Below are positions 11,099 to 47,295 of a DNA stretch of 64,000 nucleotides, piece after piece. The notes below the pieces were generated by a model. That model was not told the origin of the DNA, did not search any database, and saw only the letters and a program-made list of their open reading frames with translations. Origin of the DNA: Candidatus Gottesmanbacteria bacterium (GTDB lineage Bacteria > Patescibacteriota > Microgenomatia > UBA10105 > UBA927). The stretch's first letter is position 1. The number at the start of each line of letters is the position of its first letter. The position numbers and the translations under genes were made by a program. The stretch covers positions 18,696 through 82,695 of the forward strand of contig JAUXTO010000013.1 of assembly GCA_030679255.1 (NCBI GenBank). Direction: 5' to 3'.

Positions 11099-11100
11099 AG

Positions 11101-27453: not shown

Positions 27454-27767
27454 TCTTTTAGTTGCTGCACCAAGCCTACTCCCATTAGAAAAAATAACCA
27501 CACTGCTGCTTTTTCCGTATTTTCCGAAGCACCTGACAAAAGAAATTCAATATACATAATGATCAATACGAAAAGGCTTAAAATAAACGTGAAACGACCT
27601 GACAATTTATAAATAAAAATACTTGCTATATAGATTCCTAATAAAGTAAAAATCCGTATGTCCGAACTTTCTTTCAAAAAAAGAATATCCGCACAAATCC
27701 CCAAAAAGATTGTGGTTAAAATAACCTGCTTGCCTTGCTGTAATACATTGAATACCTTCTTTCTCAT
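27450..27767 (-). CDS. Small (105 aa) 3-4 TM membrane protein (GtrA/DUF2304-like size class), function unknown
   Basis: Hydrophobic helices; sits between the two giant paralogs. Confidence 0.4.
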   Translation of the reverse strand: MRKKVFNVLQQGKQVILTTIFLGICADILFLKESSDIRIFTLLGIYIASIFIYKLSGRFTFILSLFVLIIMYIEFLLSGASENTEKAAVWLFFLMGVGLVQQLKE

Positions 27768-27777
27768 AAGATAGTAA

Positions 27778-30246
27778 TTATAACGTATGACGAATGCGAT
27801 TGATAGATGATCTACAAACGTAAATACCTAATAGCATAAGCGATGCAGCTGATATAAATGTACCTATCCAAAATATCCGTTGTCCAGTCATCTCAATGAT
27901 TAAATCATAAGTTTCTTTATTATCCATATCTGTAGGCTTTATGTACCAGGCGTTGGCATAGCCATTCACCTTAATATGTGTATTTTCCGGAAGTGATTTC
28001 ATACTAAGGGTCTCAAATGCATTTCTATCAAATATATTATTATTGATATTCCCTTCTCGGATTTCACCGTTAAAATATGCCGTAGCCAGAGAAATTATCG
28101 GGACTTCTTTTGAAGAAAAAAATACCTTCCATTTTTCGTGGAAAGCTTCTGAAAATACCAAAACATACGGATGGTTCGCACCGGATACTTTTACTTTATA
28201 CTTTGTCGGATTAATTCGTTGGAATTGAATATATATTCTATTTGCGCCTTGGGGTACCTCGTTTCTTTGACAAATTGTTACAGACAATATCGTGTTACAA
28301 GTACTCCTGTCCAGATAAATTGAACGAAATACTTTTTTGATTCGATCATCAAAAAAAATATTTGATTTGGCATATGGACTTGAAACAGGTTTTTCATCGT
28401 AAATAAGTACATTACTTGCAACGTAAATGTGAGGCAATAAATCCTTCTCTTCCAAACGATAAATTCCATACGGTCCTGCTTCAAATATTTTATTTGTAGT
28501 CAGATGATCAACGAATTCTTTATATTCCTTCTGATTTTTTGGTAAATATTTACGCGCATAAGAAGTAGAATATGGGTATTCTGGAAAGGTACCATCATAA
28601 ATTAATGGATCCGAATTGTAAAATATATATTGAATATTTAAGATACCGAACATTAACTTAATTAAATCATAATTTCTTTCCCTACTAAGTTTCCAAAACA
28701 TATCGCTAAATGGTGCTAGATCCTGATAACCCGCAAAATCCTTCTTTCCCGTTAGCTGCCCTATCATGGATCGCCCGACAAATGCACCATTATTCAGCCC
28801 ATGAACTACTTGATAATCATAATCGGTAGAGGGTAAAAGTAGAATTTTTCCATCATTTGGTAGTGATCGAATATAATCTAACACTGTCTCAAATTTGGGA
28901 TCCATCACGATACCTACTCTCGTCGTTGATTGAACGTTTAACTGATTTACCAGTTGACCGTTAATAAATTGCCATGAACTAACGATAAAATAGAGCACTA
29001 TAGTAGATGAAAATATTATCACGTACTTGTGTTTTAACCGATTCAATAAAAAAAACGCGGTAACTCCAAATAAAAGTGAGTAAAAAAAGTAGTATACAAA
29101 TTGCCACTGTCCGTAAAAATTTCTAAACATACTAAATCCCGGAATATAAAAAAGACTTCTATAGAGATCGATACCAATATTCGTAATTTTTGCGTTTACT
29201 AAATAATAGGTTAGAAGGAAAAAAAGTCCTATCAGAATAGCTGTCTTATCATATTTTTTCTTCAATATAATACCCAAAATAATTACGAATGGTATGATGA
29301 TGGATGCCCATGATATTTGACTGTACACTGAATGTGCAAACCATCGAAGGCTCAATTTCGGAATTGCCAACGCGCTGGAAAAATATCCTATTTGCTCTAA
29401 CATGTAAGCGTTGTCAAATACGCGAGTATTTGTAGTACTCCCCGGCGAAAAAAGATCAAAAAATTCCGGTAATAGATGAAAAGCATGCAGTCCTAGGAAC
29501 AATAAAAGTCCGAACAGCAGCCCTTTCCAGGGCATTTTTCGTTTCAGGATAAAAACCGTATAAACGATCAGAAATATGATACCTAATGGATAAAACGCAA
29601 AAAATGGAGGCGCTGCGGTCCAAGAAAAGCTATGGCTAAAAAACAAACTTACGAATAATCCTAAACTTAGAAATCGAAATTGTGAGGTAGTTATATACTT
29701 TAAAAGGAGATAGAACATGAGAGGGTTTAAAAATACCTGATCTTGGGAAGGTAAAGCTCGAACGTAATTTTCTGTCATAGCCGGGTTAAAAATATAAAAA
29801 AAGCCAGCAAGAATAGACGCCACCCTAATAACTATCAACGTCCTTTTCTCGGTTACGTTTCTCCCCAACAGCTCATTCACAATCCCGTAAACTGCTAAAA
29901 ACCCTACAGCCACCTTCATACTGTTGTAAAGTGTAAGTAAAATGTATGGAGAATGAATTACTTGTTTCAAAATAGCAAGAACCGATAAAAGAGGAAGATA
30001 AAAAAATCTTGAGTTAAGCCCACCAATTCCGAACGGTAGTACTAAGTACGCTGAATTTTTAATCAGATTTACCGGATCATAAAAATAAAGCCTTCCGCCA
30101 TCTCCACCGATATCTATCTCCCCCGGCCTAAACCAAAAAAATGGAACTACCATTAGCGCACAGGAAACCAAAAGCGCCAGCCAGTGACACTTTATGAAGA
30201 ATCGAATCACACGAAAATATCTATCCATATCAAACGATAATGACAT
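27778..30246 (-). CDS. Large (822 aa) polytopic membrane protein, family A paralog
   Basis: FFWFRPGEIDIGGDGGRLYFYDP..GIGG. C-terminal NPTKYKVKVSGANHPYVLVFSEAF.. and HIKVNGYANAWYIKPTDM..YDLIIEMTGQ plus a TM, parallel to 23701-27453. Confidence 0.6.
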   Translation of the reverse strand: MSLSFDMDRYFRVIRFFIKCHWLALLVSCALMVVPFFWFRPGEIDIGGDGGRLYFYDPVNLIKNSAYLVLPFGIGGLNSRFFYLPLLSVLAILKQVIHSPYILLTLYNSMKVAVGFLAVYGIVNELLGRNVTEKRTLIVIRVASILAGFFYIFNPAMTENYVRALPSQDQVFLNPLMFYLLLKYITTSQFRFLSLGLFVSLFFSHSFSWTAAPPFFAFYPLGIIFLIVYTVFILKRKMPWKGLLFGLLLFLGLHAFHLLPEFFDLFSPGSTTNTRVFDNAYMLEQIGYFSSALAIPKLSLRWFAHSVYSQISWASIIIPFVIILGIILKKKYDKTAILIGLFFLLTYYLVNAKITNIGIDLYRSLFYIPGFSMFRNFYGQWQFVYYFFYSLLFGVTAFFLLNRLKHKYVIIFSSTIVLYFIVSSWQFINGQLVNQLNVQSTTRVGIVMDPKFETVLDYIRSLPNDGKILLLPSTDYDYQVVHGLNNGAFVGRSMIGQLTGKKDFAGYQDLAPFSDMFWKLSRERNYDLIKLMFGILNIQYIFYNSDPLIYDGTFPEYPYSTSYARKYLPKNQKEYKEFVDHLTTNKIFEAGPYGIYRLEEKDLLPHIYVASNVLIYDEKPVSSPYAKSNIFFDDRIKKVFRSIYLDRSTCNTILSVTICQRNEVPQGANRIYIQFQRINPTKYKVKVSGANHPYVLVFSEAFHEKWKVFFSSKEVPIISLATAYFNGEIREGNINNNIFDRNAFETLSMKSLPENTHIKVNGYANAWYIKPTDMDNKETYDLIIEMTGQRIFWIGTFISAASLMLLGIYVCRSSINRIRHTL

Positions 30247-31438
30247 CAGGCACGGGAATGATAAACTTTCCCCCCTTCTTCTGATACTCAGTCAGAAAAC
30301 CCATCACTTCGTCCGAAATGTTCCATGGCAGAATCAGAACGTAATCCGGACGGTCATCCACGACTTTAGACGGAGGGTAAATAAGAAAATGTGTCCCCGG
30401 CGTATAGAGACCTTGTTTTGCTTCAGATTTGTCAGCAATGAAGTCCAAGAACTTGCCGAGTCGGAAATAGTTAAGAAGCACCATGCCTTTGGCGGGAGCG
30501 CCATATGCCGCGACGCGTTTGCCGTCTTTTTTAAGCTTCTTTAACAAACCCGTAAGCTGGGTACGTAATTTCTCTACGTTTGTGCGGATTTTGAGATAGC
30601 TTGACAACCTATGAAAACCATGCTGATGCTCTTGGTCAACGAGTTCTCGTACCTGTTCGGAGGCTGAATACATACCCTCGTGACAAACAAAAATCCTAAG
30701 CGACCCGCCCTGCATGTGCACGAACTCGCAATCATAGATACAAAGATTGGCTCGCGCAAAGAGATTTTGCAGCGCAAGAAGTGAATAATAAAAAACATGC
30801 TCGTGATAGATCGTATCAAATTTATTTTCAAACAGGCCGCCGATGTATGGCGACTCAAATACCGCGGTTCCTGTTTTTTTAAGCACCGTCGACACGCCAC
30901 GGACGCACCCGAGGATATCCGGAATGTGAGCTAAGACATTCGCGCCGTAAAGCAAATCAGCGTGAATATTACTACGCGCTAATTCTTTTGCGACTTCGTG
31001 TCCAAAGAACGCAGTCTTTGTAGGTATGCCCTTTTTGATCGCTTCGGCGGCCACGTTCCGGGCCGGGTCAATGCCCAATACCTTTATCCCCGCTTTTTGG
31101 TACCACCGGAGATGGACTCCGTCATTGCTGCCTATCTCTACTACCAGACTCCCTCTCCCTAGTTTTAGTCGCTGTATAAGATAATAAGCTGTTGTTTTGC
31201 TGTACTCGATGATGCTTTGAGTGGTAGAAGAAAAATACAGATAATGACGAAACAGATCCTTGGGATCAACAATTTTGAGAAGCTGTACGAGGTAACATTT
31301 TTGACAAAACCCAACGCTTAGGTCAAAGCTGCGTTCGTTAGGGATATCTTTTTTTTTGAGAAAAGCGTTGACCGGCGGCATGGCGCCGAGAGAGAAAAAT
31401 TCGGTGATCGGATGCCCGCATGCGCGACAGCGTGTCAT
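30230..31438 (-). CDS. NDP-sugar C-methyltransferase family (TylC3/NovU-like; Zn-ribbon + SAM domain + C-methyltransferase C-domain)
   Basis: CRACGHP..CQKCYLVQL, VVEIGSNDGVHL, and C-terminal AAYGAPAKGMVLLNYF..DFIADKSEAKQGLYTPGTHFLIYPP..DYVLILPWN. Confidence 0.75.
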   Translation of the reverse strand: MTRCRACGHPITEFFSLGAMPPVNAFLKKKDIPNERSFDLSVGFCQKCYLVQLLKIVDPKDLFRHYLYFSSTTQSIIEYSKTTAYYLIQRLKLGRGSLVVEIGSNDGVHLRWYQKAGIKVLGIDPARNVAAEAIKKGIPTKTAFFGHEVAKELARSNIHADLLYGANVLAHIPDILGCVRGVSTVLKKTGTAVFESPYIGGLFENKFDTIYHEHVFYYSLLALQNLFARANLCIYDCEFVHMQGGSLRIFVCHEGMYSASEQVRELVDQEHQHGFHRLSSYLKIRTNVEKLRTQLTGLLKKLKKDGKRVAAYGAPAKGMVLLNYFRLGKFLDFIADKSEAKQGLYTPGTHFLIYPPSKVVDDRPDYVLILPWNISDEVMGFLTEYQKKGGKFIIPVPDVIIV

Positions 31439-32796
31439 AATCCTGGACCTCGTCCTACGGCAACATAATGGACACCGGCTTTGATAAACTTAAGCGGATC
31501 ATAGATTCTCCTGCCGTCAATTACGAGCGGATGAGCCATGAGTCGCACGAATTCCTGGGGAGAAATCTTTCTATAGACATCCCAGGCTGTCACGAGAATC
31601 ACGGCTTCAGCATTTTTAATAGCACCCTCATAATTTTTCTCAAGCGTCACTCCTAACTGATGAAGCGATTCCGGCACTTCCGCCTTATACGCTTCCGGGT
31701 CATGGCATGTTACGTCTGCTCCGCGTGCCACAAGCTCTCTCATGATGATAAGCGCGGGCGATTCGCGCATATCATCGGTATTCGGTTTAAAGGACAGTCC
31801 CAAAACGGCCACCCGTTTGCCGCGAAGTTCGCCAAGTGCACGCGAGGCCAGTTCAACAAGCCGGTGTGGCTGCTTATCGTTAATAGCAATAGTGCTTCCC
31901 AATATCGACATGGACACTCCCTTATCCGATGCAAAGCGATACAGAGCCTTCGTATCTTTAGGAAAGCAGCTTCCTCCGTACCCGCAACCGCTAAAAAGAT
32001 AATGGATAATCCCCGGCGTAATCCTTTTATTTCCCACTTTCGGACTCCATCTCCTGTCCGCGTGAACCGTTTGCCATACGTCAACAATATCCACGCCAGG
32101 CGTTTGTGCCGCAATATCCCCAATCTCATTGGAAAAACTTACAAGTGTCGCCAGCAATACGTTGGATACGTATTTACTCATCTCTGCGGTAGAAAGGTTG
32201 GTGAAAAACTTGGGACAGGTATTTTTAGCAAATAGCTTCGCATAGACGCGCGCGCTTTTATTGTCTAGGCTTCCGATGACAATCCGGTCAGGATCGAGGG
32301 CATCTTCAAGGGCATTGCCTTCGCGCAAAAACTCCGGGTTCATACAAAGTCCGACGTCTTTTGCCGATTTAGCCGACGCTTGGGCAAGTATCGGCCATAC
32401 CACCTGCTCTGTAGTCCCGGGCACCACAGTCGACTTAACGGTAACAACGTGATAGGACCGTTTCTTGAAAAGTGCCTCTCCTACAAGGGCAACTGCATCT
32501 TTCACTTGTGTCAGATCGATAGACCCATCCACAGTAGGAGTACCAACTGCGACAATTGTTATATCGGACGCGATGACACTTCGCGAAAAATCTACAGAGG
32601 CAATAAAACGCTTTTGTGCTATGACGCGGCGTAAAAGTATATCAAGTCCCGGTTCAAAAAAAGGGGCTTTTCCTGCATTGATAGATTCGACTTTATCAGG
32701 GTTTCTCCCAACGCATATCACGTGGTGACCCGCATGGGCAAACGCGATCCCAGTCACCAATCCTACATATCCGGTACCGATAATAGAAACATTCAT
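31435..32796 (-). CDS. ugd: UDP-glucose 6-dehydrogenase / nucleotide-sugar dehydrogenase
   Basis: MNVSIIGTGYVGLVTG.. Rossmann motif. ..GGSCFPKDT.. catalytic Cys motif. Central and C-terminal UDPG_MGDP_dh domains. Confidence 0.85.
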   Translation of the reverse strand: MNVSIIGTGYVGLVTGIAFAHAGHHVICVGRNPDKVESINAGKAPFFEPGLDILLRRVIAQKRFIASVDFSRSVIASDITIVAVGTPTVDGSIDLTQVKDAVALVGEALFKKRSYHVVTVKSTVVPGTTEQVVWPILAQASAKSAKDVGLCMNPEFLREGNALEDALDPDRIVIGSLDNKSARVYAKLFAKNTCPKFFTNLSTAEMSKYVSNVLLATLVSFSNEIGDIAAQTPGVDIVDVWQTVHADRRWSPKVGNKRITPGIIHYLFSGCGYGGSCFPKDTKALYRFASDKGVSMSILGSTIAINDKQPHRLVELASRALGELRGKRVAVLGLSFKPNTDDMRESPALIIMRELVARGADVTCHDPEAYKAEVPESLHQLGVTLEKNYEGAIKNAEAVILVTAWDVYRKISPQEFVRLMAHPLVIDGRRIYDPLKFIKAGVHYVAVGRGPGL

Positions 32797-33914
32797 TATT
32801 TTTTTCTCCCCGTTGCCTGATACCACTGCAGAGTACGAGTGAGTCCTTCTTCCAAGGAAATCTTAGGATCATACCCCAACTCCTGTTTCGCTTTTTGAAT
32901 CGATGGCCGGCGACGCTGAGGATTATCTGTCAGGTAATCTTTATCCTCGCTTTTTGACTGTTGGACACGCCCGCCGTACCCGAAGTGCTCCTTTGCAAGA
33001 ATTGCTATTCGGGAAGCCAAATCCGCCACGGAAACTTCCGGTAACTCAATCCCTATATTGTATGCCTCTCCCGAAGTGCCATTTACCAAAGCCTTGATAT
33101 ACCCGATCATGGCATCGGCAACATAGCAAAACGTTCGCGAAGGAGCACCGGTTGAATGCATGACGATATCTTCACCGGATAAAATATTGCGGGCAAAATC
33201 AGCAATGACTCTTCCATCGGTTATTTTCATGCCCGGGCCGTAGTTATTAAACGGCCGTACTGTCACGATTGGGATTCCGTGTATACGGACAAAATTGACA
33301 CAAAGCGTCTCACAAAATCTCTTCGACTCATCATAACAGGCCCGGGGTCCTGTACAGGAAACATTGCCCCGGTAATCTTCCGACGTGGGAATCCGCTCCG
33401 CGGGAGGGTCGCCGTAAATTTCACTTGATGAAAAATAGAGCAATTTTTTGAGTTTCGTCCGCGAGGACTTCGTTTTCACAAGCTGATCTAATATCCTGTA
33501 TAGCCCCAGGACGTTTGCCGTCATGGTTTCAATGGGATACTGCCGATAGACCATGGGTGAGGCAAATGATGCAGCGTGGATAATGTAATCATACGGTCCG
33601 TCTGCAAGTAATGGGTCCCGTGTCACGTCGCTCGAAACAACCCGGATATCATCGGTTTTTACTAAATGAGCAAGCCACGTAGGGATACCTTCACGGAACC
33701 GACTCAACGCCGTAAGACTGATTTTTTGTTTGGGGTGGTGTTCATTCCAATAGGCAATCGCCCATATGCAGTAATATCCTAAAAAACCGCCGGCACCGGT
33801 AAGGAGGAGCTTTGTCCCGGCCATAGCAGCAAACTCCGAGCTTGCTTGCTCGGTAATGTACTCTACATCTATCCTCACCACGTCATGGGGAAATATTATT
33901 GCCATACCTTCCAC
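32796..33914 (-). CDS. UDP-glucuronate decarboxylase family SDR (UXS/ArnA-C-like), paralog 2
   Basis: LLTGAGGFLG, ..ACYDESKRFCE.., ITDGRVIADF. A likely later start at MAIIFPH or MAGTKLL. Confidence 0.75.
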   Translation of the reverse strand: MEGMAIIFPHDVVRIDVEYITEQASSEFAAMAGTKLLLTGAGGFLGYYCIWAIAYWNEHHPKQKISLTALSRFREGIPTWLAHLVKTDDIRVVSSDVTRDPLLADGPYDYIIHAASFASPMVYRQYPIETMTANVLGLYRILDQLVKTKSSRTKLKKLLYFSSSEIYGDPPAERIPTSEDYRGNVSCTGPRACYDESKRFCETLCVNFVRIHGIPIVTVRPFNNYGPGMKITDGRVIADFARNILSGEDIVMHSTGAPSRTFCYVADAMIGYIKALVNGTSGEAYNIGIELPEVSVADLASRIAILAKEHFGYGGRVQQSKSEDKDYLTDNPQRRRPSIQKAKQELGYDPKISLEEGLTRTLQWYQATGRKK

Positions 33915-34672
33915 GGAGGGTTACCGCCCGCCCACAATTCGTTAAGTGTCTCAAGCTCTTTATACGTGTCGACCGCGTACCAGAATCCTTCATGTGAATA
34001 AAGCGACAATTGCCGTTCTTTTGCGAGCCTCTGGAGAGCCGGATGCTCTGTTTCTCCATTATGGAGATAATCAAAAAAATTCCGTTCAAACACCATAAAT
34101 CCACCGTTTACCCAATCGTTCATAACCGGCTTTTCAGCAAAACTTGTCACCATATGTTCCTCATCAGCTATTGCCATACCAAACTTGCTGCGTGGATGAA
34201 CACCCGTTATGGTTCCGATGGTCTTCTGCTTATTGTGAAATGCAATAAGCTTTTTGATGTCTATATCAGATACTCCATCACCGTAGGTGACCATGAATTG
34301 CCGTTCATCTGCCGGAATATACTGCTCGCAGCGTAAAATCCGTTCACCGGGAAGTGTATCAGCGCCGGTATCTACGAAGGTAATCGTGAAATCTTCAACA
34401 TCTCGTCTGTTCTCCAAATAATACGTGACTTTGTGAGTTTTGGTTGAAAGGGTAAAATCTGAAGTAAATGCTTTTTGATTGAGAAAAAAATCCTTCATGT
34501 ATTCTGCTTTATATCCGAGTGCAAGGACAAAATCGCGAAATCCATACGAGGCATAAATTTTCATAATATGCCATATCATAGGTTTTCCGCCAACATGGAC
34601 CATTGGCTTTGGTTTAAATTCCGTTTCCTCTTTTAACCGATACCCTGTCCCGCCACATAAAATAATCGTTTT
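33896..34672 (-). CDS. rfbF: Glucose-1-phosphate cytidylyltransferase
   Basis: MKTIILCGGTGYRLKEETEFKPKPMVHVGGKPMIWHIMKIY.. is a strong match to the RfbF N-terminus. Start at the internal Met. Confidence 0.85.
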   Translation of the reverse strand, partial: KTIILCGGTGYRLKEETEFKPKPMVHVGGKPMIWHIMKIYASYGFRDFVLALGYKAEYMKDFFLNQKAFTSDFTLSTKTHKVTYYLENRRDVEDFTITFVDTGADTLPGERILRCEQYIPADERQFMVTYGDGVSDIDIKKLIAFHNKQKTIGTITGVHPRSKFGMAIADEEHMVTSFAEKPVMNDWVNGGFMVFERNFFDYLHNGETEHPALQRLAKERQLSLYSHEGFWYAVDTYKELETLNELWAGGNPPWKVWQ

Positions 34673-34682
34673 CATGACATCC

Positions 34683-36811: not shown

Positions 36812-36813
36812 TG

Positions 36814-38070
36814 TTAAAGCCTCGTTTCACCGTCGCGGGTCAACACATAGGGGTACGGCATGATAAAGAGAAATTTCCCACCGGAAGCAAGATACTCCCG
36901 CTCACGCTCAACGATTTCCGATTTAAAATTCCATGGAATCACAAAAACGCAGGAAGGCTTGAGCTCTCTCGCCCTCTCTTCAGAAATAAGCTCAATATCG
37001 TCGCCCAACGTCCGGAGTCCCACTTTTTCAGGATTGCGTTCGCTGATGTAGGGCAACATCTTCTTCGTAATTCCACACATCTGCAGAAGGACGTTGCCTT
37101 TCGTCGATGCTCCAAGCCCGATGGTCAACCCTTTTTGTTTGCCGATATACTCCCGTACGCGTGTCGTGGTGTATGCGATGAGTTTTTCAAAAATATCATA
37201 TGTCTCCGGGTCTTCCAGATGCAGTGCCTTTTCCCGAAGCAACAGATACTCTACGCTGTCCGATACGTCCCGCTTTGCTTCTTTTTTAGCAGCCAAAATC
37301 CGCAAACTCCCGCCATTGACGGCATTGGTGGATGCATCAAATACACGCATCCCGTTTTTTTCCATCAAATACATGATGCTTTTAAGGGAATAATATTCCA
37401 AATGTTCATGACAGAAATCATAAAAGTTCATATCTTTGATCGTGTCGTAGAGGTAACTTACCTGAATACATAACACTCCGTCATCGGCAAGGATCTCTTT
37501 AATATCCCGCACCGCCTTATTGGGATCATTGAGATCATAAAACATCGCTGTTGAGGTAATGGCTTTAAATTTCCACTTCTTGAGCGTATCGGTTGGGAAA
37601 TAATCGTTGACGACGGTGATGTTCTTGTCTAAGTGGGACCAGTCGATGTTTTTGGCCGGATCTATGCCGACGCGCGTGAGCGTATCCGGAAACATAGAGA
37701 TCATCGTCCCATCGTTGCAGCCGATGTCCAGCACCGCATCGCCCTTTTTTACCGTAATGCGCGATAAAGCATCTTCCACGACCGTTTTCAGGTCACGGCT
37801 CATGGTTTTGGTGACGTGGGACCGGTAAAAATACTGTTCATAGAGCAAATCAGGCTCCACCGTTTCCTTAAGCTGGACAAGCCCGCATTTATCGCATAAC
37901 AAGGCCGTCATCGGTATTTTAATGTTCGATTTCGGATTATCTTTGTTAGACTTCACAAACGTGGAGGCTATAAATTGGGGCTTAATCCGGACGACAGGAG
38001 CGAGCTTTTTGCTTCCGCACACCCGGCACGCTTTGATAAGTGAATAATGTTTCATACCAATGGTCACCAT
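36814..38070 (-). CDS. NDP-sugar C-methyltransferase family (TylC3-like), copy 2
   Basis: CRVCGSKK..CDKCGLVQL, VLDIGCNDGTM. C-terminal ..LGASTKGNVLLQMCGI..ISERNPEKVGL..LISEE..VFVIPWNF. Confidence 0.7.
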   Translation of the reverse strand: MVTIGMKHYSLIKACRVCGSKKLAPVVRIKPQFIASTFVKSNKDNPKSNIKIPMTALLCDKCGLVQLKETVEPDLLYEQYFYRSHVTKTMSRDLKTVVEDALSRITVKKGDAVLDIGCNDGTMISMFPDTLTRVGIDPAKNIDWSHLDKNITVVNDYFPTDTLKKWKFKAITSTAMFYDLNDPNKAVRDIKEILADDGVLCIQVSYLYDTIKDMNFYDFCHEHLEYYSLKSIMYLMEKNGMRVFDASTNAVNGGSLRILAAKKEAKRDVSDSVEYLLLREKALHLEDPETYDIFEKLIAYTTTRVREYIGKQKGLTIGLGASTKGNVLLQMCGITKKMLPYISERNPEKVGLRTLGDDIELISEERARELKPSCVFVIPWNFKSEIVEREREYLASGGKFLFIMPYPYVLTRDGETRL

Positions 38071-38098
38071 TCTATGACGGATAGCGGGAAATTACAAG

Positions 38099-38782
38099 AT
38101 GAATTATAATACTCACATCGTGAATATGCTCCTTTTTTTCCTTTACCACTTCCAGATGTTCATGCGGGAACTAAACTGGATGATCTATAAAAATAAAATT
38201 ACCTCGAACGGGAAGGCCATCATGAGTTTTGGAGCAGGTATTATCGGACAGAGTAATAAAAATCAAGTGGTATTGGGAAAAAATGTGCGACTTTCCGGAT
38301 GGCTCACTGTTCTTGAGAAAGGTAAAATCACCATTGGGGACTATACGCTGATCGGCAACAAAACAGTGATACAAGCGTGGGATGCTGTCACCATCGGAGC
38401 ATATTGTATGATTTCTCCTGACGTATGGATACAGGACAATAATAGCCACTCTATCTATGCGCAAGACCGATTGGTCGACATGCTTGGATCCAGGGATTTC
38501 AATGACATAGGCATTGATACCACCGAAGCTGTCAAACAACCAGTCGTCATTGGGAATCACGTTTGGATCGGCCGGAGGGCAATGATATTAAAAGGAGTGA
38601 CTATCGGAGACCGGGCTATCATAGCCGCTGGAGCCGTCGTAACCCATGATGTTCTTGCCGATACGATCGTTGCAGGCAATCCGGCGGTGGTGGTAAAAAA
38701 AATATCCCCAAATTCCGTAGATATACCCAAAGCCCATGAAACTATTTCAAAACTTCAAAATAAAATGAAACATTCCTCATAA
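38099..38782 (+). CDS. Hexapeptide-repeat sugar N/O-acetyltransferase
   Basis: LbH repeats ..[48 protein letters not shown]. The true start is likely an internal Met. Confidence 0.75.
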
Positions 38783-39957
38783 TGAATACTCCTTTAGACA
38801 AATGCCTCAAACAAACATCTGTTCTTTTAGTGGCTCATTACGCTACGTTCGCGTACCAGGATTTACTGTACCGGTATTTTGTACAAAATAAATCCCGGCT
38901 GGTAACGAAAATCAATTTTCCTCTCCCTGACCTCCCCATCCTCCACCACATCGAGATGACGCACGCAGCCAACGGTAAACAGACTTTGTCCAATACCGTT
39001 CCCTCGCTCTGGAAGCCCCGCGCTGTTGCATATTTCTATCAAGTATTCCAGTACCTTTGGCTCGTCCTACGAAGCCCACACGTGTACGATTACGTCATTG
39101 CAGAAGATTCGCTTCTGGCGTTTACCTCAATTATTCTGAAAACCCTTGGTAAAATCCGGCACATAATTTTTTACTCTCACGGCATAGACTTTACACGGTT
39201 TTCTTCTCCATGGTCAAACAAACTCTATCAATCGATTGACCGCTTTTCTGCCAAACGCAGCGACTACAACTGGTCCTTGAGCCAAAATATGATTCCGATT
39301 CGGATTCGTCAGGGTATTCCCGAAAACAGACTTTTTTGGGTTCCTTCCTCTCTTCCCATTGATTTACTGTCCAGAAAAGCTTTTGTTTCAAGCCATTCGC
39401 TTGTTTTCCTCGGAGTGATCAATGATAAAAACGGTGTAGGGATACTACCGGATATCATCGTCGAGATTCGGAAAACTATTCCTGACGTCCACCTTGATAT
39501 TATGGGTGAGGGTGACATGAAAAAAAACCTTCAAATCCGCATCAAAAAACTTGGTCTCACGAAACACATTCGTATGCTTGGTAATGTAAAGTTTCAACAA
39601 TTTAAAAATACCATGACGAACTACCGCTTGGGGCTCGTGACATATAAATACTCCGAGGTCAATCTCATCCCCACGAGCGATTCGATGAAAATGCGCGTGT
39701 ATCTCGCCGCAGGGCTACCCGTGGTTCTGACAAAGGGATTTATATTCTCTGACGAAGTGACAAAAAATGATCTGGGCTATGCCGTGGATTATGATGTGAA
39801 GGCATTTGCCAAACCAATCATACAAATCCTATCCGATGATGGTCTCAGTCGACGGCTTCGCAGTAACGCGCTCGCCTATTCCAAAACAATGGATCTCACA
39901 GGGATTTACAATCGTACATTTACAGATATATTCTCCCACCGATCATCCGGGAAATGA
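38782..39957 (+). CDS. Glycosyltransferase (GT4-like GT-B), paralog 3
   Basis: LGLVTYKYSEVNLIPTSDSMKMRVYLAAGLPVVLTKGFIFSDEVTKNDLGYAVD. Confidence 0.6.
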   Translation: MNTPLDKCLKQTSVLLVAHYATFAYQDLLYRYFVQNKSRLVTKINFPLPDLPILHHIEMTHAANGKQTLSNTVPSLWKPRAVAYFYQVFQYLWLVLRSPHVYDYVIAEDSLLAFTSIILKTLGKIRHIIFYSHGIDFTRFSSPWSNKLYQSIDRFSAKRSDYNWSLSQNMIPIRIRQGIPENRLFWVPSSLPIDLLSRKAFVSSHSLVFLGVINDKNGVGILPDIIVEIRKTIPDVHLDIMGEGDMKKNLQIRIKKLGLTKHIRMLGNVKFQQFKNTMTNYRLGLVTYKYSEVNLIPTSDSMKMRVYLAAGLPVVLTKGFIFSDEVTKNDLGYAVDYDVKAFAKPIIQILSDDGLSRRLRSNALAYSKTMDLTGIYNRTFTDIFSHRSSGK

Positions 39958-41055
39958 CCGCACAAGATCTGCGATATACTCGCGGTCTTCTTGAGTCACC
40001 CACCATCCGACCGGAATACAAACCATATCACGGTAAAACGTATCCACATTGGGCAGAGGACGTCGGAATGCTCTGGTCACCGGGTGCGTATCATTGCGCC
40101 TATGGACTTTCGACGCCATGACATTATGCGATTTCATGTAGTCCATAAACCGGGCTGAGCGTCTCACTTTCATCGTGAATAGCCAGTTGCTGGAGAGGTA
40201 CCTTGCATCTTCGTGCATAAGTGTGAGCCATGGTAGTCCCATAAAAGCGTTACGATAATACATTGCATTATCCCGATGTTTTTGAAGAATCTCTATAGTA
40301 TGACTAAAATTTGCCAAACCGATCGTCGCGTTGACGTCATTCATGTGGAATTTATACCCCCACATTGAAATGTCCTTCTCAATACGATAATCATTCGACC
40401 GCTTATTCCTGTCAATGCCAAAGTACCGGAGTAAAATAGCCTTTTTATAATCCTTTTTTGTTTTCGTCAACAGCGCCCCACCGTCCACCGTCGTCAAGTG
40501 TTTGATCGCCTGAAATGAAAAACACGTATAGTCAGCAGTGTTACCCACCATCTTGCCTTTATACATGGCACCGATGGCATGAGCAGCATCTTCGATGACC
40601 GGAATATTTCCGACAATTTTCTTTATCGTTTGTATATCACACGGATACCCGCCCCAATCTACAGCCATTACTGCCTTCGTTTTGGCTGTCAGCCGCTTTT
40701 GTATACTCGCCGGATCAATATTGCCGGTTGCCGGATCAATATCCGCCCATACGATAGTAGCCCCATGGGCAAGTATCGGCCAATTCGTCGCAGTACACGT
40801 CATCGGAGTTGTGATGACCTCATCTCCGGGCCCTACGCCGATCAGGTCAAGGGCCAGATGAAGAGCAGTCGTACCGCTGTTAAGCGTGACGACATAAGGA
40901 TTTCCAAAAAACTCAGAAAGCTTCGCTTCAAATTCATCAACTTTTGGTCCTTGCGCGACAAATCCCGAATAAAGGACTTCTTTGAGCGCATCCAATACTT
41001 CCGAAGCCATAAATACTTTAAAAAGTGGAATCATCGTGCTCGGCTTATAATTCAT
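39943..41055 (-). CDS. DegT/DnrJ/EryC1 family sugar aminotransferase, copy 3
   Basis: NSGTTALHLAL, EDAAHAIGA, FSFQAIKHLTTVDGG (Lys present). Start probably at 41034 or 41007. Confidence 0.8.
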   Translation of the reverse strand: MNYKPSTMIPLFKVFMASEVLDALKEVLYSGFVAQGPKVDEFEAKLSEFFGNPYVVTLNSGTTALHLALDLIGVGPGDEVITTPMTCTATNWPILAHGATIVWADIDPATGNIDPASIQKRLTAKTKAVMAVDWGGYPCDIQTIKKIVGNIPVIEDAAHAIGAMYKGKMVGNTADYTCFSFQAIKHLTTVDGGALLTKTKKDYKKAILLRYFGIDRNKRSNDYRIEKDISMWGYKFHMNDVNATIGLANFSHTIEILQKHRDNAMYYRNAFMGLPWLTLMHEDARYLSSNWLFTMKVRRSARFMDYMKSHNVMASKVHRRNDTHPVTRAFRRPLPNVDTFYRDMVCIPVGWWVTQEDREYIADLVRSFPG

Positions 41056-42026
41056 AATTTGATAGTATTATACCACTCTATCGTTTTTTTTAAGCCCTCT
41101 TCAAGTGGTATTTGAGCCGTAAATCCTATAGCATCTTTTGCTTTGCGGTTATCGCTATTTCTTCTCATGCTTCCATCAGGTTTGGTTGTATCAAACGTAA
41201 TGCGGGAGGCTTTTCCGCTCACACGGATAATGGTTTCAATGAGTTGTTTCATCGTCACTTCTTCATCCGATCCTAGATTAACCGGATCGGCAACTGCATA
41301 TTTTTCCGTGGCCAGCATCATACCCCGAACCAAATCTTCCACGTAGAGAAATGCCCGGGTCTGGCGGCCGCTACCCCATACAACCACAGGGTCTTCTCCA
41401 TCCATGACACGACGGATAAGCGACGGAATAACGTGCGTTGGTGTCGGGAAAAAATGATCCCCCGGACCATAGCAGTTATATGGGCGCACAACAGCCACCT
41501 CAAACCCAAATTCCTCATGATAATACCGGGCAAGCAACTCATTGACGCGCTTTGCCCACCCATACCCTCCGTTCACTTCTTCGGGCTCACCGCGCAGTCC
41601 CTCGGACTCCGGAGTGGGAATTATTGCGTCAGACGGATACACCACCGCGGAGGAGACCGCAAGAAACCGCTCTACTCCGGCCTTTTGAGCCGCATCCATC
41701 ATCGTGGTTTGAATGAGAAGGTTTTCCGACAGCATCGATCCTTTATGTGCCTGATTGTAGGCGACCCCTGCCACTTTGGCCGCCAGATGCATAACCACCT
41801 CAATTCCCTTGCACGCCAATTGTGCTTTCTGCGGATCTTTACATTCTCCGCTGATCATCTCTACATCCTTTGGTGTATTTTTTTTATTGAGCGGAGAGGG
41901 ATTGCTTGCGTTATCCAGAATCGCCACCCGGGCACCTGATTCCAGAAGCTTGGCCGTCAAATGACTGCCGATAAACCCGAGTCCACCGGTAAGCAATACA
42001 CGTTTATTGTTCCAAAAGGTGCTCAT
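41052..42026 (-). CDS. NAD-dependent epimerase/dehydratase (SDR) with a CDP-glucose-4,6-dehydratase-like N-terminus
   Basis: FWNNKRVLLTGGLGFIGSHL, ..GYGWAKR.. (YxxxK). Confidence 0.65.
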   Translation of the reverse strand: MSTFWNNKRVLLTGGLGFIGSHLTAKLLESGARVAILDNASNPSPLNKKNTPKDVEMISGECKDPQKAQLACKGIEVVMHLAAKVAGVAYNQAHKGSMLSENLLIQTTMMDAAQKAGVERFLAVSSAVVYPSDAIIPTPESEGLRGEPEEVNGGYGWAKRVNELLARYYHEEFGFEVAVVRPYNCYGPGDHFFPTPTHVIPSLIRRVMDGEDPVVVWGSGRQTRAFLYVEDLVRGMMLATEKYAVADPVNLGSDEEVTMKQLIETIIRVSGKASRITFDTTKPDGSMRRNSDNRKAKDAIGFTAQIPLEEGLKKTIEWYNTIKL

Positions 42027-42030
42027 GGGA

Positions 42031-43266
42031 TTACGAAGTAAAAATTTTCACAAGAGTCGTAAGATCTGATTTTGAGAGCTCCGGGTTATTACCAAAATAG
42101 AGCCCCTGATCGTGAATAAGCCGGGCGTTAGAATTGGACAAATCATTGCCTTCCTCTACATACTTATGAAAAAACGGCTGATTCGTCATATCTCCGCCGA
42201 CTATCGGACGGATTTCGACAATCCCGTCACAGCGCCTGACAAACTCATCCCTGATCCGCTCTGAACGGCACACCAAGGGTACAGCAAAATTAGAAACGAT
42301 ATCCAAATGATCGTACCGGAGCGGATAAAATAGATCCGTCCGGCTATAGAGATGATTGGCAAGAAACAAAAAGTTTTGTTCCCGCTTGGCCACGATTTCA
42401 TCAAGATACCCAAGCTGCACATTACCCAAAAATCCCTGTATTTCCGTAGTCCGTAAATTAAATCCAAGGTCATAAAACGTGTACCGCGAATAGAAACTTG
42501 AGTTAACCTTATATTTGACGCGCATGGTTAATTGCTTTTGCTCCGTCAGATTTCGGTCCCATCCGTGAGCGCGGACCAATTGAAGCATGGTTTCGAGGTC
42601 TCCATCATCGGTGCATACCGCGCCTCCCTCTACTGTAGACATATGGTGGCCGACGTAAAAAGAAAACGTACTCGCGAGACCAAAATTACCCAACCGTTTC
42701 CCTTTATAAATAGTTCCGAGCGATTCACAGTTGTCCTCGACCAGCAGTATCTTGTGCTCCTGGCATAAGGCAACAATTTCATCGAGATTGTCACAAAATC
42801 CCAATAGATGCGTCAAAAAAAGAACCTTAATATTCTGTTTTTTTAATACTTCAGAAAGAGTCCTGGCCGAAACGTTGAGCGTATCCACTTCCACATCGAC
42901 AGGTACCGGAGTGAGTCCCAACTGGATAAGCGGCATGACATTAGTCGACCAGGTGAGCGCAGAAAAACCAACCAGATCACCCCGCTTGAGTTTGCCCATG
43001 TTGAGCAATGCCATGATCAGCGCTAAATTTGCGCTGCTGCCGCTATTGACGAAGACGCAGTATTTTCGTCCTTGGTATTTGGCAAAATTGACCTCAAACT
43101 TCCGGCACTCTTCCCCAATGCTCAACTTTTCAGCATGTTTGATAAACCGACATAACTCCCTCTTCGTCTTTTTCTCCTTATAAAACGTGGATTTAATGAG
43201 TGAAATCATAATCTGTATAATTACGAAGATTACCAAAATACTGATGATAATGATAGTAGAAGCCAA
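42031..43266 (-). CDS. PMP-dependent NDP-4-keto-6-deoxyhexose 3-dehydratase-like (E1/DdhC/ColD-like) member of the DegT family
   Basis: DegT-fold motifs, but the active-site box reads FSFYVGHHMSTVEGG (His where aminotransferases have Lys), the hallmark of E1/ColD dehydratases. The N-terminal 19 aa are hydrophobic and overlap the upstream GT2; the likely start is the Met at 43209. Confidence 0.65.
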   Translation of the reverse strand: MASTIIIISILVIFVIIQIMISLIKSTFYKEKKTKRELCRFIKHAEKLSIGEECRKFEVNFAKYQGRKYCVFVNSGSSANLALIMALLNMGKLKRGDLVGFSALTWSTNVMPLIQLGLTPVPVDVEVDTLNVSARTLSEVLKKQNIKVLFLTHLLGFCDNLDEIVALCQEHKILLVEDNCESLGTIYKGKRLGNFGLASTFSFYVGHHMSTVEGGAVCTDDGDLETMLQLVRAHGWDRNLTEQKQLTMRVKYKVNSSFYSRYTFYDLGFNLRTTEIQGFLGNVQLGYLDEIVAKREQNFLFLANHLYSRTDLFYPLRYDHLDIVSNFAVPLVCRSERIRDEFVRRCDGIVEIRPIVGGDMTNQPFFHKYVEEGNDLSNSNARLIHDQGLYFGNNPELSKSDLTTLVKIFTS

Positions 43267-44227
43267 CCGGCTTCGTCACCGCAGGCAAGTAATCCCCATC
43301 GGCAACCCGACGGAAACACTGGGTGCGTTGACGTTTACGGTAGGTTACCGCACATTGACGAATATTCCACCATAAACCGCTCAAAATAGCACGCGAAATA
43401 GCAAACTTTCCCCTTAAGAAAAAGAATACCGTACCAAAGAGATGAAACGTGACAAGTTGTGGAATCGTAGTAACACATCGAAATAAAGATAGATTCTTGA
43501 GATAAGTACACACCATATTTTTGACCGAATGAAAGTAGATATGTGGTGTAATTGTTTTCCCGAACGCAGCCCCTCCTTGATGATAGATTCGGGCTTTCGG
43601 CTCATACCACACACTCCATCCCGAAAGCCACACCCGCATACAAAAATCCGTCTCTTCAAAATACGCAAAATAATCCGGATCAAACAATCCGATTTTTTCT
43701 ATTACCGATTTGCGTATGAGCATACAGACTCCTTTTGCCGTAAATATCTTCATCGATTGGTTATACTGAGACATCGTTTCCATTTTTTCCCGTCCGTAGT
43801 GGTACAGCAATCCGGACGGAAGAAAAAACGCACCTATGGAGTCAATTCTGTCTTTTTCCGAATCCAAAAGTACTTTGGGTTGCACCACGCCAATTGATTC
43901 ATCGTGCTGTATGGATTGCACCAGAAAGTCAAGAAAATCCGGTTCTACTGTCGTGTCAGGATTCAAAAGCAGTACAAATTTTCCTTTCGCCGCTTGAAGA
44001 CCTGCATCATGACCCTGGGCAAACCCAACATTGTTTTTATTTTGTACGACCTGTACGTTTGGAAATGTTCGCTTGACATAGGAAGCTGACCCATCCGTTG
44101 ATGCGTTGTCCACCAAAATGACCTCATATGAAGGGTATGTGATTTTACGAAGTGACCGCAAACATTCTCCTATATAGGCTTTCCCATTCCAATTTACGAG
44201 GATAATGCTGACCAAAGGATATTTCAC
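43193..44227 (-). CDS. GT2 family glycosyltransferase (WbbL/rhamnosyltransferase-like)
   Basis: VSIILVNWNG, VDNASTDGS, ..FEETDFC.. C-terminal hydrophobic segment. Confidence 0.75.
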   Translation of the reverse strand: MKYPLVSIILVNWNGKAYIGECLRSLRKITYPSYEVILVDNASTDGSASYVKRTFPNVQVVQNKNNVGFAQGHDAGLQAAKGKFVLLLNPDTTVEPDFLDFLVQSIQHDESIGVVQPKVLLDSEKDRIDSIGAFFLPSGLLYHYGREKMETMSQYNQSMKIFTAKGVCMLIRKSVIEKIGLFDPDYFAYFEETDFCMRVWLSGWSVWYEPKARIYHQGGAAFGKTITPHIYFHSVKNMVCTYLKNLSLFRCVTTIPQLVTFHLFGTVFFFLRGKFAISRAILSGLWWNIRQCAVTYRKRQRTQCFRRVADGDYLPAVTKPVGFYYHYHQYFGNLRNYTDYDFTH

Positions 44228-45150
44228 GATACGATAGTATTATTTTTATGCCACTCAATGGTACGTGTTAGTCCTTCTCTTAGGTCCATGCCCGGCTTCC
44301 AACCCAATATGCGGCTTGCTTTTTCCCACAAGACGAATTGGTCGGTTATTTCATTTTTCCGTTCATAGTCAGCCGGGACAATGGTTATTTTTTCACCGAT
44401 GAGACCCCCGATCGCCTCAATGATCCCCCGAGCGTCAATCGGATTTCCGGCACCAAAATTAAATATTCTGTTACGTTCTAATTTTACCGCCGGCATGGCG
44501 CCAAGCATGAGATACGCCGCCACTGCGTCATCGATATAGAGATATTCCCGTTTCGCCGTCCCTCCCCACATCGGTACGGGCTTCTTTTGCAGGGCATAGC
44601 GAAGTGTTTTGGGAATGAGCCGGGTCACATTCGTATCTCCCGGGCCATATATATTTGCAAACCGCCCAATCACAACCCCTAGGTCAAAGCTATCCGCGTA
44701 TGATTGTGCAAGCAGATCAGTGATGGTCTTACTCGTTTCATACGGGCGGGAAGGGCGGGGCGGATCATCTTCGCTAAACGGCGGGGTGCCCACTCCGTAA
44801 ACGTGTGCCGTCGACGCGATGATGACCCTCGGGATATGAAAGAGTCTTGATAGCTCTAATACATTGAGCGTCCCGATAAAATTTGTCTGAAACGTATCAT
44901 AGGGCACATCCTGCCCCTTCTCAACGAGCGACTCACCTGCCAAATGAAACACAACACCCGGCTTCTTTTCAAAAAATGGGGTCAGGGAAGCGCGATCGGT
45001 CACATCGATAGGATTCCCAGCACTTCTCGATAGAGGTACTACGAGAGCCCCCAGAGAGAAAAGCCTCTCTGTGAGATGTTTTCCTACAAATCCATGTGCA
45101 CCGGTTATGATGACCGATTTATTTTTCCAAAAATTTTCTGAAATTGCCAT
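44224..45150 (-). CDS. CDP-glucose 4,6-dehydratase-like SDR (RfbG-like)
   Basis: FWKNKSVIITGAHGFVGKHL matches the RfbG N-terminal signature (FWxGKxVxVTGHTGFKG). ..PYETSKT.. YxxxK. Confidence 0.65.
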   Translation of the reverse strand: MAISENFWKNKSVIITGAHGFVGKHLTERLFSLGALVVPLSRSAGNPIDVTDRASLTPFFEKKPGVVFHLAGESLVEKGQDVPYDTFQTNFIGTLNVLELSRLFHIPRVIIASTAHVYGVGTPPFSEDDPPRPSRPYETSKTITDLLAQSYADSFDLGVVIGRFANIYGPGDTNVTRLIPKTLRYALQKKPVPMWGGTAKREYLYIDDAVAAYLMLGAMPAVKLERNRIFNFGAGNPIDARGIIEAIGGLIGEKITIVPADYERKNEITDQFVLWEKASRILGWKPGMDLREGLTRTIEWHKNNTIVS

Positions 45151-47258: not shown

Positions 47259-47295
47259 ATAGGACTTAGGACATAAGACTTAGGACTTAAGGGAC
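47259..47295. repeat. Heptamer tract (plus-strand TAGGAC/TTAGGAC-like units). It spans the stop codon and last 5 codons of the four-helix-bundle gene and the 21-nt gap before the GT4 start.
   Basis: ataggacttaggacataagacttaggacttaagggac read directly. Inverse complement of the tract at 47706-47747. Confidence 0.75.

Follow-up and report, generated by a model that had tools for sequence, protein, structure and literature searches.

A predicted ColD-type, Fe-S-free sugar 3-dehydratase in a glycan-biosynthesis island of Candidatus Gottesmanbacteria, with relatives across the Patescibacteria

The 64-kb stretch of contig JAUXTO010000013.1 of a Candidatus Gottesmanbacteria bacterium analysed here (the window; positions are counted from its first letter and minus-strand genes are marked (-)) is a glycan-biosynthesis island. 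A reading of the sequence alone, made without database searches (hereafter the sequence-only reading), had flagged the region 30230-45150, in which a DegT-fold protein was taken to be an E1/ColD-type 3-dehydratase of a CDP-hexose branch. Every open reading frame (ORF) named in that reading was present at its position. Judged by its sequence, the protein is a ColD-type, Fe-S-free, pyridoxamine 5'-phosphate (PMP)-dependent 3-dehydratase and not an E1 enzyme, and it is a new, Patescibacteria-wide addition to the known ColD enzymes. It probably makes a colitose-like 3,6-dideoxy sugar. The explanation that we favour, and regard as reasonably probable from sequence comparison, is a ColD-type dehydratase acting on a GDP-4-keto-6-deoxy-D-mannose-type substrate and followed by an Fcl/ColC-like enzyme.

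The dehydratase contains the box FSFYVGHHMSTVEGG, in which the first His of the HH pair is His188. In an alignment to PDB sequences, anchored by the entries of the ColD mutants H188N, H188K and S187N/H188K, this residue falls exactly on His188 of ColD and His220 of E1. The sequence-only reading had placed a His at the position of the Schiff-base Lys and had set an alignment with E1 and ColD beforehand as the check; the His was present, and a Lys, the outcome named as contradicting the claim, was not seen. The DegT/DnrJ/EryC1 fold (PF01041) would also suit an ordinary sugar aminotransferase in which the His had been mis-read. However, 20/20 aligned members of the family have G187, H188 and H189, and the other three DegT proteins of the window, which are genuine aminotransferases, have Lys in the His188 column. 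The alignment rules out the aminotransferase reading, to which we attach practically no probability, and the prediction of a PMP-dependent enzyme with His for Lys is upheld.

E1 and SpnQ have a four-cysteine [2Fe-2S] motif and require a reductase, which for E1 is E3 (PMC8987622). ColD has no [2Fe-2S] cluster; its enamine intermediate is hydrolysed and PMP is regenerated from glutamate (PMC8987622), and for the ColD homologues of Campylobacter jejuni pyridoxal 5'-phosphate (PLP) and L-glutamate suffice (PMC10440746). The E1 motif (C...C-x-C-x7-C), the search for which had also been proposed, is absent from the dehydratase. Its segment at the E1 loop, DRNLTEQKQLTM, contains no Cys, and the longer loop stretch reads RAHGWDRNLTEQKQLTMRVKY (no cysteine) against RAHGWTRNLPKKNKVT in ColD. 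Only one of the four cluster cysteines of E1 has a counterpart in the dehydratase, the Cys of EDNCES, and this one is kept by ColD as well. The motifs RAHGW(D/T)RNL, EDNCES(L/M)G and E(I/C)RPIV are common to the dehydratase and ColD and are not those of E1. In a phmmer search of PDB with the dehydratase as query, ColD scored 196 bits and E1 162 bits. Foldseek ranks 1-10 were all ColD chains; the AlphaFold2 model used, built from a 20-sequence alignment, has a mean predicted local distance difference test score (pLDDT) of 68, with values <50 near residues 185-193 and 214-250, and served for fold ranking only.

An E1/RfbH-type enzyme whose E3 (AscD), or a general ferredoxin/flavodoxin reductase of the kind used by SpnQ, is encoded elsewhere would likewise have His at the Lys position. 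RfbH is also the top NCBIfam match of the dehydratase, and pipelines of JGI call some of its homologues 'CDP-6-deoxy-D-xylo-4-hexulose-3-dehydrase' or 'E1'. However, the score on the RfbH model NF011936 is 220.8 bits, under the equivalog cut-off of 423 bits, and the three C-x-C...C loop cysteines are missing. They are missing in its close relatives too: 1.8 billion cluster representatives were searched, the 112 full-length proteins scoring at least 200 bits were assessed, and 112/112 combine the His with fewer than 3 loop Cys. We therefore hold an E1 enzyme to be very improbable here, and automatic annotations of the dehydratase as 'aminotransferase' or 'E1' are corrected by the present assignment.

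Three loci of relatives (these loci are given L numbers below) contain a second His-type DegT gene beside the ColD-type gene: L007 (8664-9983), L023 (7581-8810) and L073 (12254-13612), the pair in L007 being directly adjacent. These second proteins score 544-636 bits on the RfbH model and keep the C-x-C...C loop. True E1 orthologues therefore exist in the phylum as separate genes, and the gene of the window lies outside this group. The examined neighbours of these three RfbH genes included none recognisable as E3-like.

The sequence-only reading had found no E3 (AscD/RfbI) in the window and this was confirmed: no plant-type ferredoxin motif (C-x4-C-x2-C-x(20-40)-C) occurs in the six frames of the 64-kb window, and there is no FNR-like ORF among its listed ORFs. 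What was presented there as a puzzle has an ordinary answer, because ColD-type enzymes need no E3 and its absence is expected. Between the two types left open in that reading, the stand-alone, ColD-like option stands (no Fe-S cysteines, a score below the RfbH cut-off and ColD as the best match) and the E1 option does not.

The start codon of the dehydratase is ATG 43209 (392 aa), not TTG 43266 (411 aa). The ATG form is the gene call made independently on an identical public 34-kb contig (run SRR13727518), and in an exact-sequence look-up this form was present in the records and the 411-aa form was absent from them. The homologues (best 120) are 390-405 aa long. When the protein was aligned with 19 homologues, the N-terminus MIxLIKSTF showed M1, I2, L4, I5, K6, S7, T8 and F9 to be invariant. 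The hydrophobic N-terminal 'extension' of the sequence-only reading is therefore not part of the protein. The upstream glycosyltransferase (GT) gene of family GT2 overlaps the dehydratase gene by 17 nt, a length given in that reading as 17-74 nt.

Two short-chain dehydrogenases/reductases (SDRs), SDR_N upstream and SDR_K downstream, flank the dehydratase and had both been described as RfbG-like. This description could not be maintained: SDR_K (41052-42026) and SDR_N (44224-45150) score 71 and 126 bits, respectively, on the CDP-glucose 4,6-dehydratase model TIGR02622 (cut-off 278), and the S-D-K motif is found in neither. For SDR_K the RfbG assignment was ruled out, as the protein is Fcl/GME-like and reads SSAVVYP. 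Its score on the Fcl model of NCBIfam is 190.6 bits (cut-off 500), and its PDB matches are GDP-L-fucose synthase (GFS, 159 bits), UXS (147) and GME (138). The conserved residues are Ser126, Tyr155, Lys159 and His198. Its orthologues show V-S-S-A-C-V-Y-P ... Y-G-W-A-K ... S-H-V-I-P, and these motifs line up with the Ser/Tyr/Lys triad of E. coli GFS and with its epimerase residues Cys109 and His179. The position of Fcl Cys109 (residue 128 of SDR_K) is Val in the window, L005 and L020, and Cys in 31/34 orthologues; SDR_K of the window may thus reduce without epimerising, the epimerase activity having been lost in this sublineage.

SDR_N has TIGR02622 as its best NCBIfam match, and its top PDB matches are 4-epimerase-like. 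At the position of the dehydratase dyad it has S-T-(S/A)-H-V-Y-G (STAHVYG in the window) versus the D-K, D-E or S-E of dehydratases. The His, His116, is kept in 18/19 orthologues, the exception being L007 with Gln. The C-terminal segment R-F-x-N-I-Y-G-x-G-D...R-(L/I)-I-P resembles that of the S-D-K RfbG of L005, with 31% identity overall. No S-D-K CDP-glucose 4,6-dehydratase is encoded in the 64-kb window; the syntenic loci have one directly after RfbF. The RfbG-like SDRs of these sister loci have S-(S/T)-D-K in 16/16 aligned sequences and score 185-195 bits on TIGR02622, also below the cut-off. In the Microgenomates locus L002, an LdpA-like 4Fe-4S protein (19181-20176; 131 bits on the LdpA model) is encoded right after the S-D-K RfbG-like SDR.

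A search with the dehydratase returned 7204 proteins at E <= 1e-20. Identity to it is 68% or more among the best 120, of which the few with a source name are all labelled Patescibacteria. GTDB species genomes were screened with two peptide patterns of the family; 303 encode a relative, and the best 80 loci were taken. They include Gottesman-, Levy-, Roizman- and Saccharibacteria and others, and by record titles, several of them mislabelled, and synteny they appear to be Patescibacteria. Many of the 80 records (L009-L079) are titled 'uncultured Gammaproteobacteria bacterium' although they are Patescibacteria by gene content and synteny, which appears to be a systematic labelling error in these deposits. 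Within the clade the ColD-type gene is 62-93% identical, it occurs in at least 303 species-level genomes, and it always lies inside large glycosylation islands.

Synteny was counted in the 56 loci in which the dehydratase gene is flanked by 8 kb or more on each side, taking neighbours within ~10 kb. An SDR_K orthologue (at least 45% identity) was found in 24/56 loci, usually directly downstream, and SDR_N in 16/56, upstream and often adjacent. RfbF (14/56, at 1-9 kb) and the S-D-K RfbG (11/56, at 5-9 kb) were never adjacent. Gmd scoring near its cut-off was present in 8/56 loci at 1-9 kb, and a Gmd/DmhA-like SDR of the GDP-heptose type in 3/56 at 5-8 kb; 28/56 had no recognisable 4,6-dehydratase within 10 kb. 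The order is consistent: first an SDR whose motif (S-T-x-H, S-T-E-E or the S-T-S-E of Gmd) includes a residue at the dehydratase position, then the 3-dehydratase, then the Fcl-like SDR. Orthologues of Saccharibacteria are 62-73% identical to the dehydratase, and those at 64-67% have a Gmd of 389-404 bits (cut-off 415) at 1-9 kb. In L046, a Saccharibacteria locus with a 66% identical orthologue, Gmd (404 bits) lies at 1118 bp and an SDR with the motif NH(I)GPG, presumably that of the Gmd/Rmd group, at 138 bp.

The two nearest outgroup clusters with flanking DNA, P0127 and P0128 (their loci include L086 and L087), point in the same direction. In P0127 (50% identical) a canonical Gmd and an Fcl/GME-like SDR follow, and the gene of P0128 (48% identical) overlaps that of a canonical Fcl/ColC, Gmd and GT10/GT11 genes being close by. 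Gmd stands beside the outgroups in both L086 and L087, and the GT10/GT11 fucosyl/colitosyl-transferase-family genes are in L086. GT10 and GT11 are families of transferases that use GDP-fucose and GDP-colitose. A further relative, a ColD-type DegT with 51% identity followed by an Fcl-like SDR, is found on a phage contig (L088, 8001-10198; capsid, portal and protease genes), close to an HMUDK_hel gene and a glycosyltransferase; this may be phage-encoded synthesis of a dideoxy sugar.

By analogy with ColD, PMP would form a Schiff base (ketimine) with the C4 keto group of the sugar. His188 would next abstract the proton at C4' of PMP, and the hydroxyl at C3 would be eliminated. Hydrolysis of the enamine would then yield the 3,6-dideoxy-4-keto sugar and ammonia, and L-glutamate would turn PLP back to PMP without an E3/AscD reductase. 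This scheme rests on family membership and on the biochemistry of ColD and the C. jejuni enzymes. The His at the Lys position, the missing Fe-S motif, the affinity to ColD and the synteny were observed; the chemistry, the order of the steps and the nucleotide are inferred. The product would most likely be reduced at C4 by SDR_K; alternatively, the aminotransferase and acetyltransferase genes encoded nearby may convert the 4-keto intermediate into a 4-amino sugar, or the C-methyltransferase CMT2 may convert it into C-methyl derivatives. The substrate would be supplied by a Gmd encoded outside the window or possibly by SDR_N. We lean, by a little, towards a GDP-linked substrate, most likely GDP-4-keto-6-deoxy-D-mannose, because the 64-67% identical orthologues lie beside Gmd, the outgroups lie in colitose-type loci and SDR_K is Fcl-like.

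Several observations weigh against the explanation as a whole. Neither Gmd nor ManC is encoded in the 64-kb window, where RfbF is the sole nucleotidyltransferase found. SDR_N, which lies beside the dehydratase in many Microgenomates loci, resembles enzymes of the RfbG/RmlB type (pyrimidine-NDP-glucose) and not Gmd; its presence correlates with that of RfbF, and RfbF and RfbG share the locus with the dehydratase in the 14 and 11 of 56 loci counted above. The dehydratase is only 34% identical to E. coli ColD versus 32% to E1, and ColD Ser187 is replaced by Gly. Its structural model is poor in the active-site loops, which makes it unfit for a comparison of GDP and CDP pockets.

A tentative alternative, and in our estimate an unlikely one, combines ColD chemistry with a CDP-linked substrate. 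RfbF would make CDP-glucose, SDR_N with its S-T-x-H motif would act as the 4,6-dehydratase in place of an S-D-K RfbG, the 3-OH would be removed without E3, and SDR_K, the aminotransferase or CMT2 would complete the sugar. Such a route to CDP-3,6-dideoxy or C-methyl hexoses would not depend on E3. Besides RfbF being the only NTP-transferase in the window, this would fit the best family match of SDR_N, its likeness to the RfbG of L005 and the retention of His116; the exception, L007, carries an additional S-T-E-E SDR close to the dehydratase gene. SDR_N and RfbG are also partly complementary (the window, L042 and L020 have SDR_N without RfbG; L002, L003 and L014 have RfbG without SDR_N), and RfbF is present in 10/16 loci with SDR_N. 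However, RfbF and RfbG never adjoin the dehydratase but lie 1-9 kb off across glycosyltransferase genes, in the window in a different operon, and the 64-67% orthologues and nearest outgroups are beside Gmd. Moreover, sister loci that need 3-deoxygenation of a CDP-sugar carry an additional, true RfbH. In SDR_N the Asp of the dehydratase dyad is missing, and its best solved relatives are 4-epimerase-like enzymes. It is equally doubtful that SDR_N, the dehydratase and SDR_K form, in Microgenomates, a self-contained E3-independent pathway from RfbF-made CDP-glucose to CDP-3,6-dideoxy and C-methyl hexoses, SDR_N using a His as general base. If this were true, the trio would apply the solution of ColD to the substrate of E1, and its product would be a dideoxy sugar characteristic of Patescibacteria cell envelopes.

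The substrate could also be another 4-keto sugar nucleotide: dTDP- or UDP-4-keto-6-deoxyglucose, GDP-6-deoxy-4-keto-heptose, or an NDP-4-keto-pentose from the 6-dehydrogenase and UXS-like pair encoded in the window. L017 (16504-18820) and L030 (18999-21170) have a fusion of an HddC-like guanylyltransferase with a GmhB phosphatase and a Gmd/DmhA-like SDR, genes of a GDP-heptose pathway, in the same locus as SDR_N and the dehydratase (and SDR_K, in L030 only), and the C. jejuni ColD homologues use GDP-heptose (PMC10440746). In addition, the pair of C-methyltransferase CMT1 and UXS-like SDR_C lies <3 kb from the dehydratase gene in L022, L030 and L061, and half of the loci lack a recognisable 4,6-dehydratase, as noted above. 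Against this, all characterised members of the family use 4-keto-6-deoxy (or 2,6-dideoxy) hexoses or heptoses (PMC8987622), nothing positive speaks for a pentose, and GDP-heptose genes occur in just 2-3 loci. We consider such a substrate improbable, more so than a CDP-linked one.

The cytidylyltransferase RfbF, named as such in the sequence-only reading, matches TIGR02623 end to end (residues 1-257 to 2-255/255; 267 bits, E 1.6e-79), just below the cut-off of 300.25. It is 57-72% identical to RfbF of the sister loci, and in 11 loci an S-D-K RfbG-like SDR stands beside it. In the window, RfbF is coupled by overlaps of 19, 31 and 4 nt to SDR_C, an NDP-sugar 6-dehydrogenase and CMT1, in a different operon from the dehydratase; it thus serves at least one branch that is unrelated to 3-deoxygenation. 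SDR_C has the S/T-S-E and Y-D-E-x-K-R motifs of UXS enzymes, with SSSEIYG and CYDESKR invariant in 5/5 orthologues, and is closest to UXS structures (human UXS1, 174 bits in PDB). Its S-S-E motif had suggested a Gmd-like 4,6-dehydratase; this was dropped, as SDR_C is clearly UXS-like and paired with the 6-dehydrogenase. The cassette of RfbF, SDR_C, 6-dehydrogenase and CMT1 recurs in L061, and its first three genes in L042.

Other loci have RfbF, S-D-K RfbG, an SDR and a transketolase split into N and C halves instead (L003 17312-21179, L005 18289-21176, L027 and L028). The glycosyltransferases before this split-transketolase cassette are the ones that stand before RfbF in the window, and the cassette may make a two-carbon-branched (yersiniose-like) CDP-sugar. 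The GC content at 30-34 kb (CMT1, 6-dehydrogenase and SDR_C) is 0.47-0.48, versus 0.34-0.35 in the adjacent 24-30 kb, which fits a cassette swapped in for the RfbG-SDR-transketolase module of the sister loci.

The two TylC3-like C-methyltransferases of the sequence-only reading were confirmed by domains and PDB matches. Both CMT1 and CMT2 have PF08421 (Methyltransf_13, zinc), PF13489 (S-adenosylmethionine) and PF08484 (Methyltransf_14), and Cys4 sets of the zinc domain are visible in the two (C4/C7/C45/C48 and C15/C18/C59/C62). Among solved proteins, both are closest to the sugar 3-C-methyltransferases MtmC, TcaB9 and 5t64; CMT1 scores 266 bits with MtmC and 258 with TcaB9, and CMT2 190 and 117 bits, respectively. 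In L005, L018, L020, L027 and L042, CMT2 is again encoded downstream of the dehydratase and SDR_K. The RfbF module would make a different sugar, which is probably C-methylated. The 'CDP-hexose branch' of the sequence-only reading is thus doubtful for the dehydratase: no nucleotidyltransferase other than RfbF was found in the window, which agrees with it, but RfbF is in the other operon and orthologues of the dehydratase stand beside Gmd. Taken together, that reading was right about PMP-dependent 3-deoxygenation by a stand-alone, ColD-like enzyme, and wrong about E1, the two RfbG assignments and, probably, the CDP link.

The flagged stretch consists of two co-directional minus-strand operons with two plus-strand genes in between (Table 1). 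In gene order, the junctions of operon A are -53, -32, -4, -17, +4 and -4 nt; in operon B, from RfbF onward, successive genes overlap by 19, 31, 4 and 17 nt. The Lys-type aminotransferase at the end of operon A has the motif FSFQAIKH, with Lys at the Schiff-base position.

Table 1. Operons and genes of the flagged region and its borders, with predicted products.
Feature	Position	Strand	Remarks
Operon A	47258 to 39943	(-)	GT4, GT2, SDR_N, GT2, dehydratase, SDR_K, Lys-type DegT aminotransferase
SDR_N, divergent RfbG/RmlB-like SDR, candidate 4,6-dehydratase	44224..45150	(-)	S-T-x-H-V-Y-G / P-Y-E-T-S-K; His replaces Glu/Lys base
GT2 glycosyltransferase	43193..44227	(-)	Pfam Glycos_transf_2 recorded for identical public gene; overlaps SDR_N by 4 nt and dehydratase by 17 nt
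ColD-type PMP-dependent NDP-4-keto-6-deoxyhexose 3-dehydratase (predicted)	42031..43209	(-)	392 aa, His188, no Fe-S cysteines
SDR_K, GDP-fucose-synthase/ColC-like 4-reductase, possibly epimerase	41052..42026	(-)	4 nt downstream of dehydratase
Lys-type DegT sugar aminotransferase	39943..41055	(-)	PF01041 299 bits; PseC/LegC/ArnB-like; overlaps SDR_K by 4 nt
GT1 glycosyltransferase	38782-39957	(+)	Second plus-strand gene between operons A and B
Hexapeptide-repeat acetyltransferase	38099..38782	(+)	Pfam Hexapep; NCBIfam WbbJ/WcaF-like
Operon B	38070 to 27778	(-)	CMT2, two glycosyltransferases, RfbF, SDR_C, 6-dehydrogenase, CMT1, 822-aa membrane protein
CMT2, TylC3/MtmC-family NDP-sugar C-methyltransferase	36814..38070	(-)	Pfam Methyltransf_13, _23, _14
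RfbF-like glucose-1-phosphate cytidylyltransferase	33896..34672	(-)	TIGR02623 267 bits
SDR_C, UXS-family NDP-glucuronate decarboxylase-like SDR	32796..33914	(-)	Overlaps RfbF by 19 nt
NDP-sugar 6-dehydrogenase	31435..32826	(-)	TIGR03026 393 bits (cut-off 189.8); all three UDPG_MGDP_dh Pfam domains
CMT1, TylC3/MtmC/TcaB9-family NDP-sugar C-methyltransferase	30230..31438	(-)	Pfam Methyltransf_13, _14

Scans of the whole 64-kb window for tRNA genes and Rfam families gave zero matches. Two paralogous giant polytopic membrane proteins of 1266 and 822 aa are encoded at 23701-27501 and 27778-30246 (-). They have an N-terminal GGD..RLYFY and a C-terminal NGYANxW in common; the 822-aa protein has zero Pfam matches, and the two probably act as GT-C-like polymerases or transferases of glycans. 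A small four-helix-bundle protein of a 23S rRNA-IVP / bAvd-like family is encoded at 47280-47651 (-), immediately upstream of operon A, and a similar protein is encoded in L060 (12365-12754). In the middle of the glycan island, at 7301-11697 (-), there are three tandem pairs of an AbiEii toxin (PF08843, 74-96 bits) and an AbiEi-like antitoxin, in a stretch of low GC content (0.35-0.40). Two AAA_14 + DUF4143 ATPase genes at 11932-13242 and 49799-50956 (-) break up runs of glycosyltransferase genes and look like inserted selfish or defence elements.

The strong conservation of the ColD-type gene and its constant position in glycosylation islands suggest that a 3,6-dideoxyhexose is widespread in the surface glycans of these ultrasmall, mostly uncultured Patescibacteria episymbionts. 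A literature search for reports tying Patescibacteria or Saccharibacteria to colitose, tyvelose or dideoxyhexose found nothing relevant. With the absence of E3 explained, the remaining interest lies in the unusual conservation of this clade in reduced genomes, the S-T-x-H SDR and the identity of the nucleotide.

Among known systems, the closest is ColD/WbdK of E. coli O55 and Yersinia pseudotuberculosis (PDB 2GMS, 3B8X), a GDP-4-keto-6-deoxy-D-mannose 3-dehydratase. It likewise has His for Lys and no [2Fe-2S] motif, it is the best match of the window dehydratase in sequence (196 bits) and fold, and it has RAHGWxRNL, EDNCES and ExRPIV in common with it. An Fcl/ColC-like SDR is the next gene in both cases, and close relatives of the dehydratase stand beside Gmd. 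The differences are the identity of 34%, the change of Ser187 to Gly, a window without Gmd or ManC, a neighbouring reductase, SDR_K, without the epimerase Cys, and the apparent confinement of the clade (62-93% identity) to Patescibacteria.

The E1 (RfbH/DdhC/AscC) and E3 (AscD) system resembles the window in the His-for-Lys exchange, in the PMP-dependent C3 deoxygenation of a 4-keto-6-deoxyhexose predicted for the dehydratase, and in an RfbF cytidylyltransferase in the same island. It differs in that the dehydratase is without the loop cysteines and below the RfbH cut-off, with no E3 in the window, the real RfbH being separate genes in sister loci. SpnQ, the dTDP-4-keto-2,6-dideoxyglucose 3-dehydratase of the forosamine pathway of spinosyn, is comparable in that an aminotransferase comes after the 3-dehydratase; in the window it is of the Lys type and encoded two genes downstream. 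In the spinosyn pathway, the SpnQ step is followed by the 4-aminotransferase SpnR. Unlike the dehydratase, which lacks such a motif, SpnQ has a [2Fe-2S] cluster and works with general ferredoxin/flavodoxin reductases.

The C3-dehydratases of C. jejuni HS:5/HS:11, from the pathway to GDP-3,6-dideoxyheptose (PMC10440746), have the ColD-type chemistry, with PLP and L-glutamate only, that is predicted for the dehydratase. In that pathway the C3-dehydratase is followed by an epimerase and a C4-reductase, and GDP-heptose genes are present in the sister loci L017 and L030. However, the C. jejuni enzymes are 62-67% identical to ColD versus 34% for the dehydratase, and the window is without heptose genes. 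Fcl/GFS and ColC are the best family and structure match of SDR_K, which keeps the Ser/Tyr/Lys triad and the equivalent of His179 and is the next gene after the 3-dehydratase; it differs in the Val at the Cys109 equivalent (Cys in 31/34 orthologues) and in its score of 191 against the 500-bit equivalog cut-off. Finally, CMT1 and CMT2 have the three-domain architecture of TylC3, MtmC, TcaB9 and KijD1, with a Cys4 zinc domain and a C-terminal Methyltransf_14 (MtmC, 190-266 bits). Those enzymes act on dTDP-sugars of antibiotic pathways, whereas the two C-methyltransferases of the window belong to operons for cell-envelope glycans, where one is coupled to RfbF, the 6-dehydrogenase and the UXS-like SDR_C.

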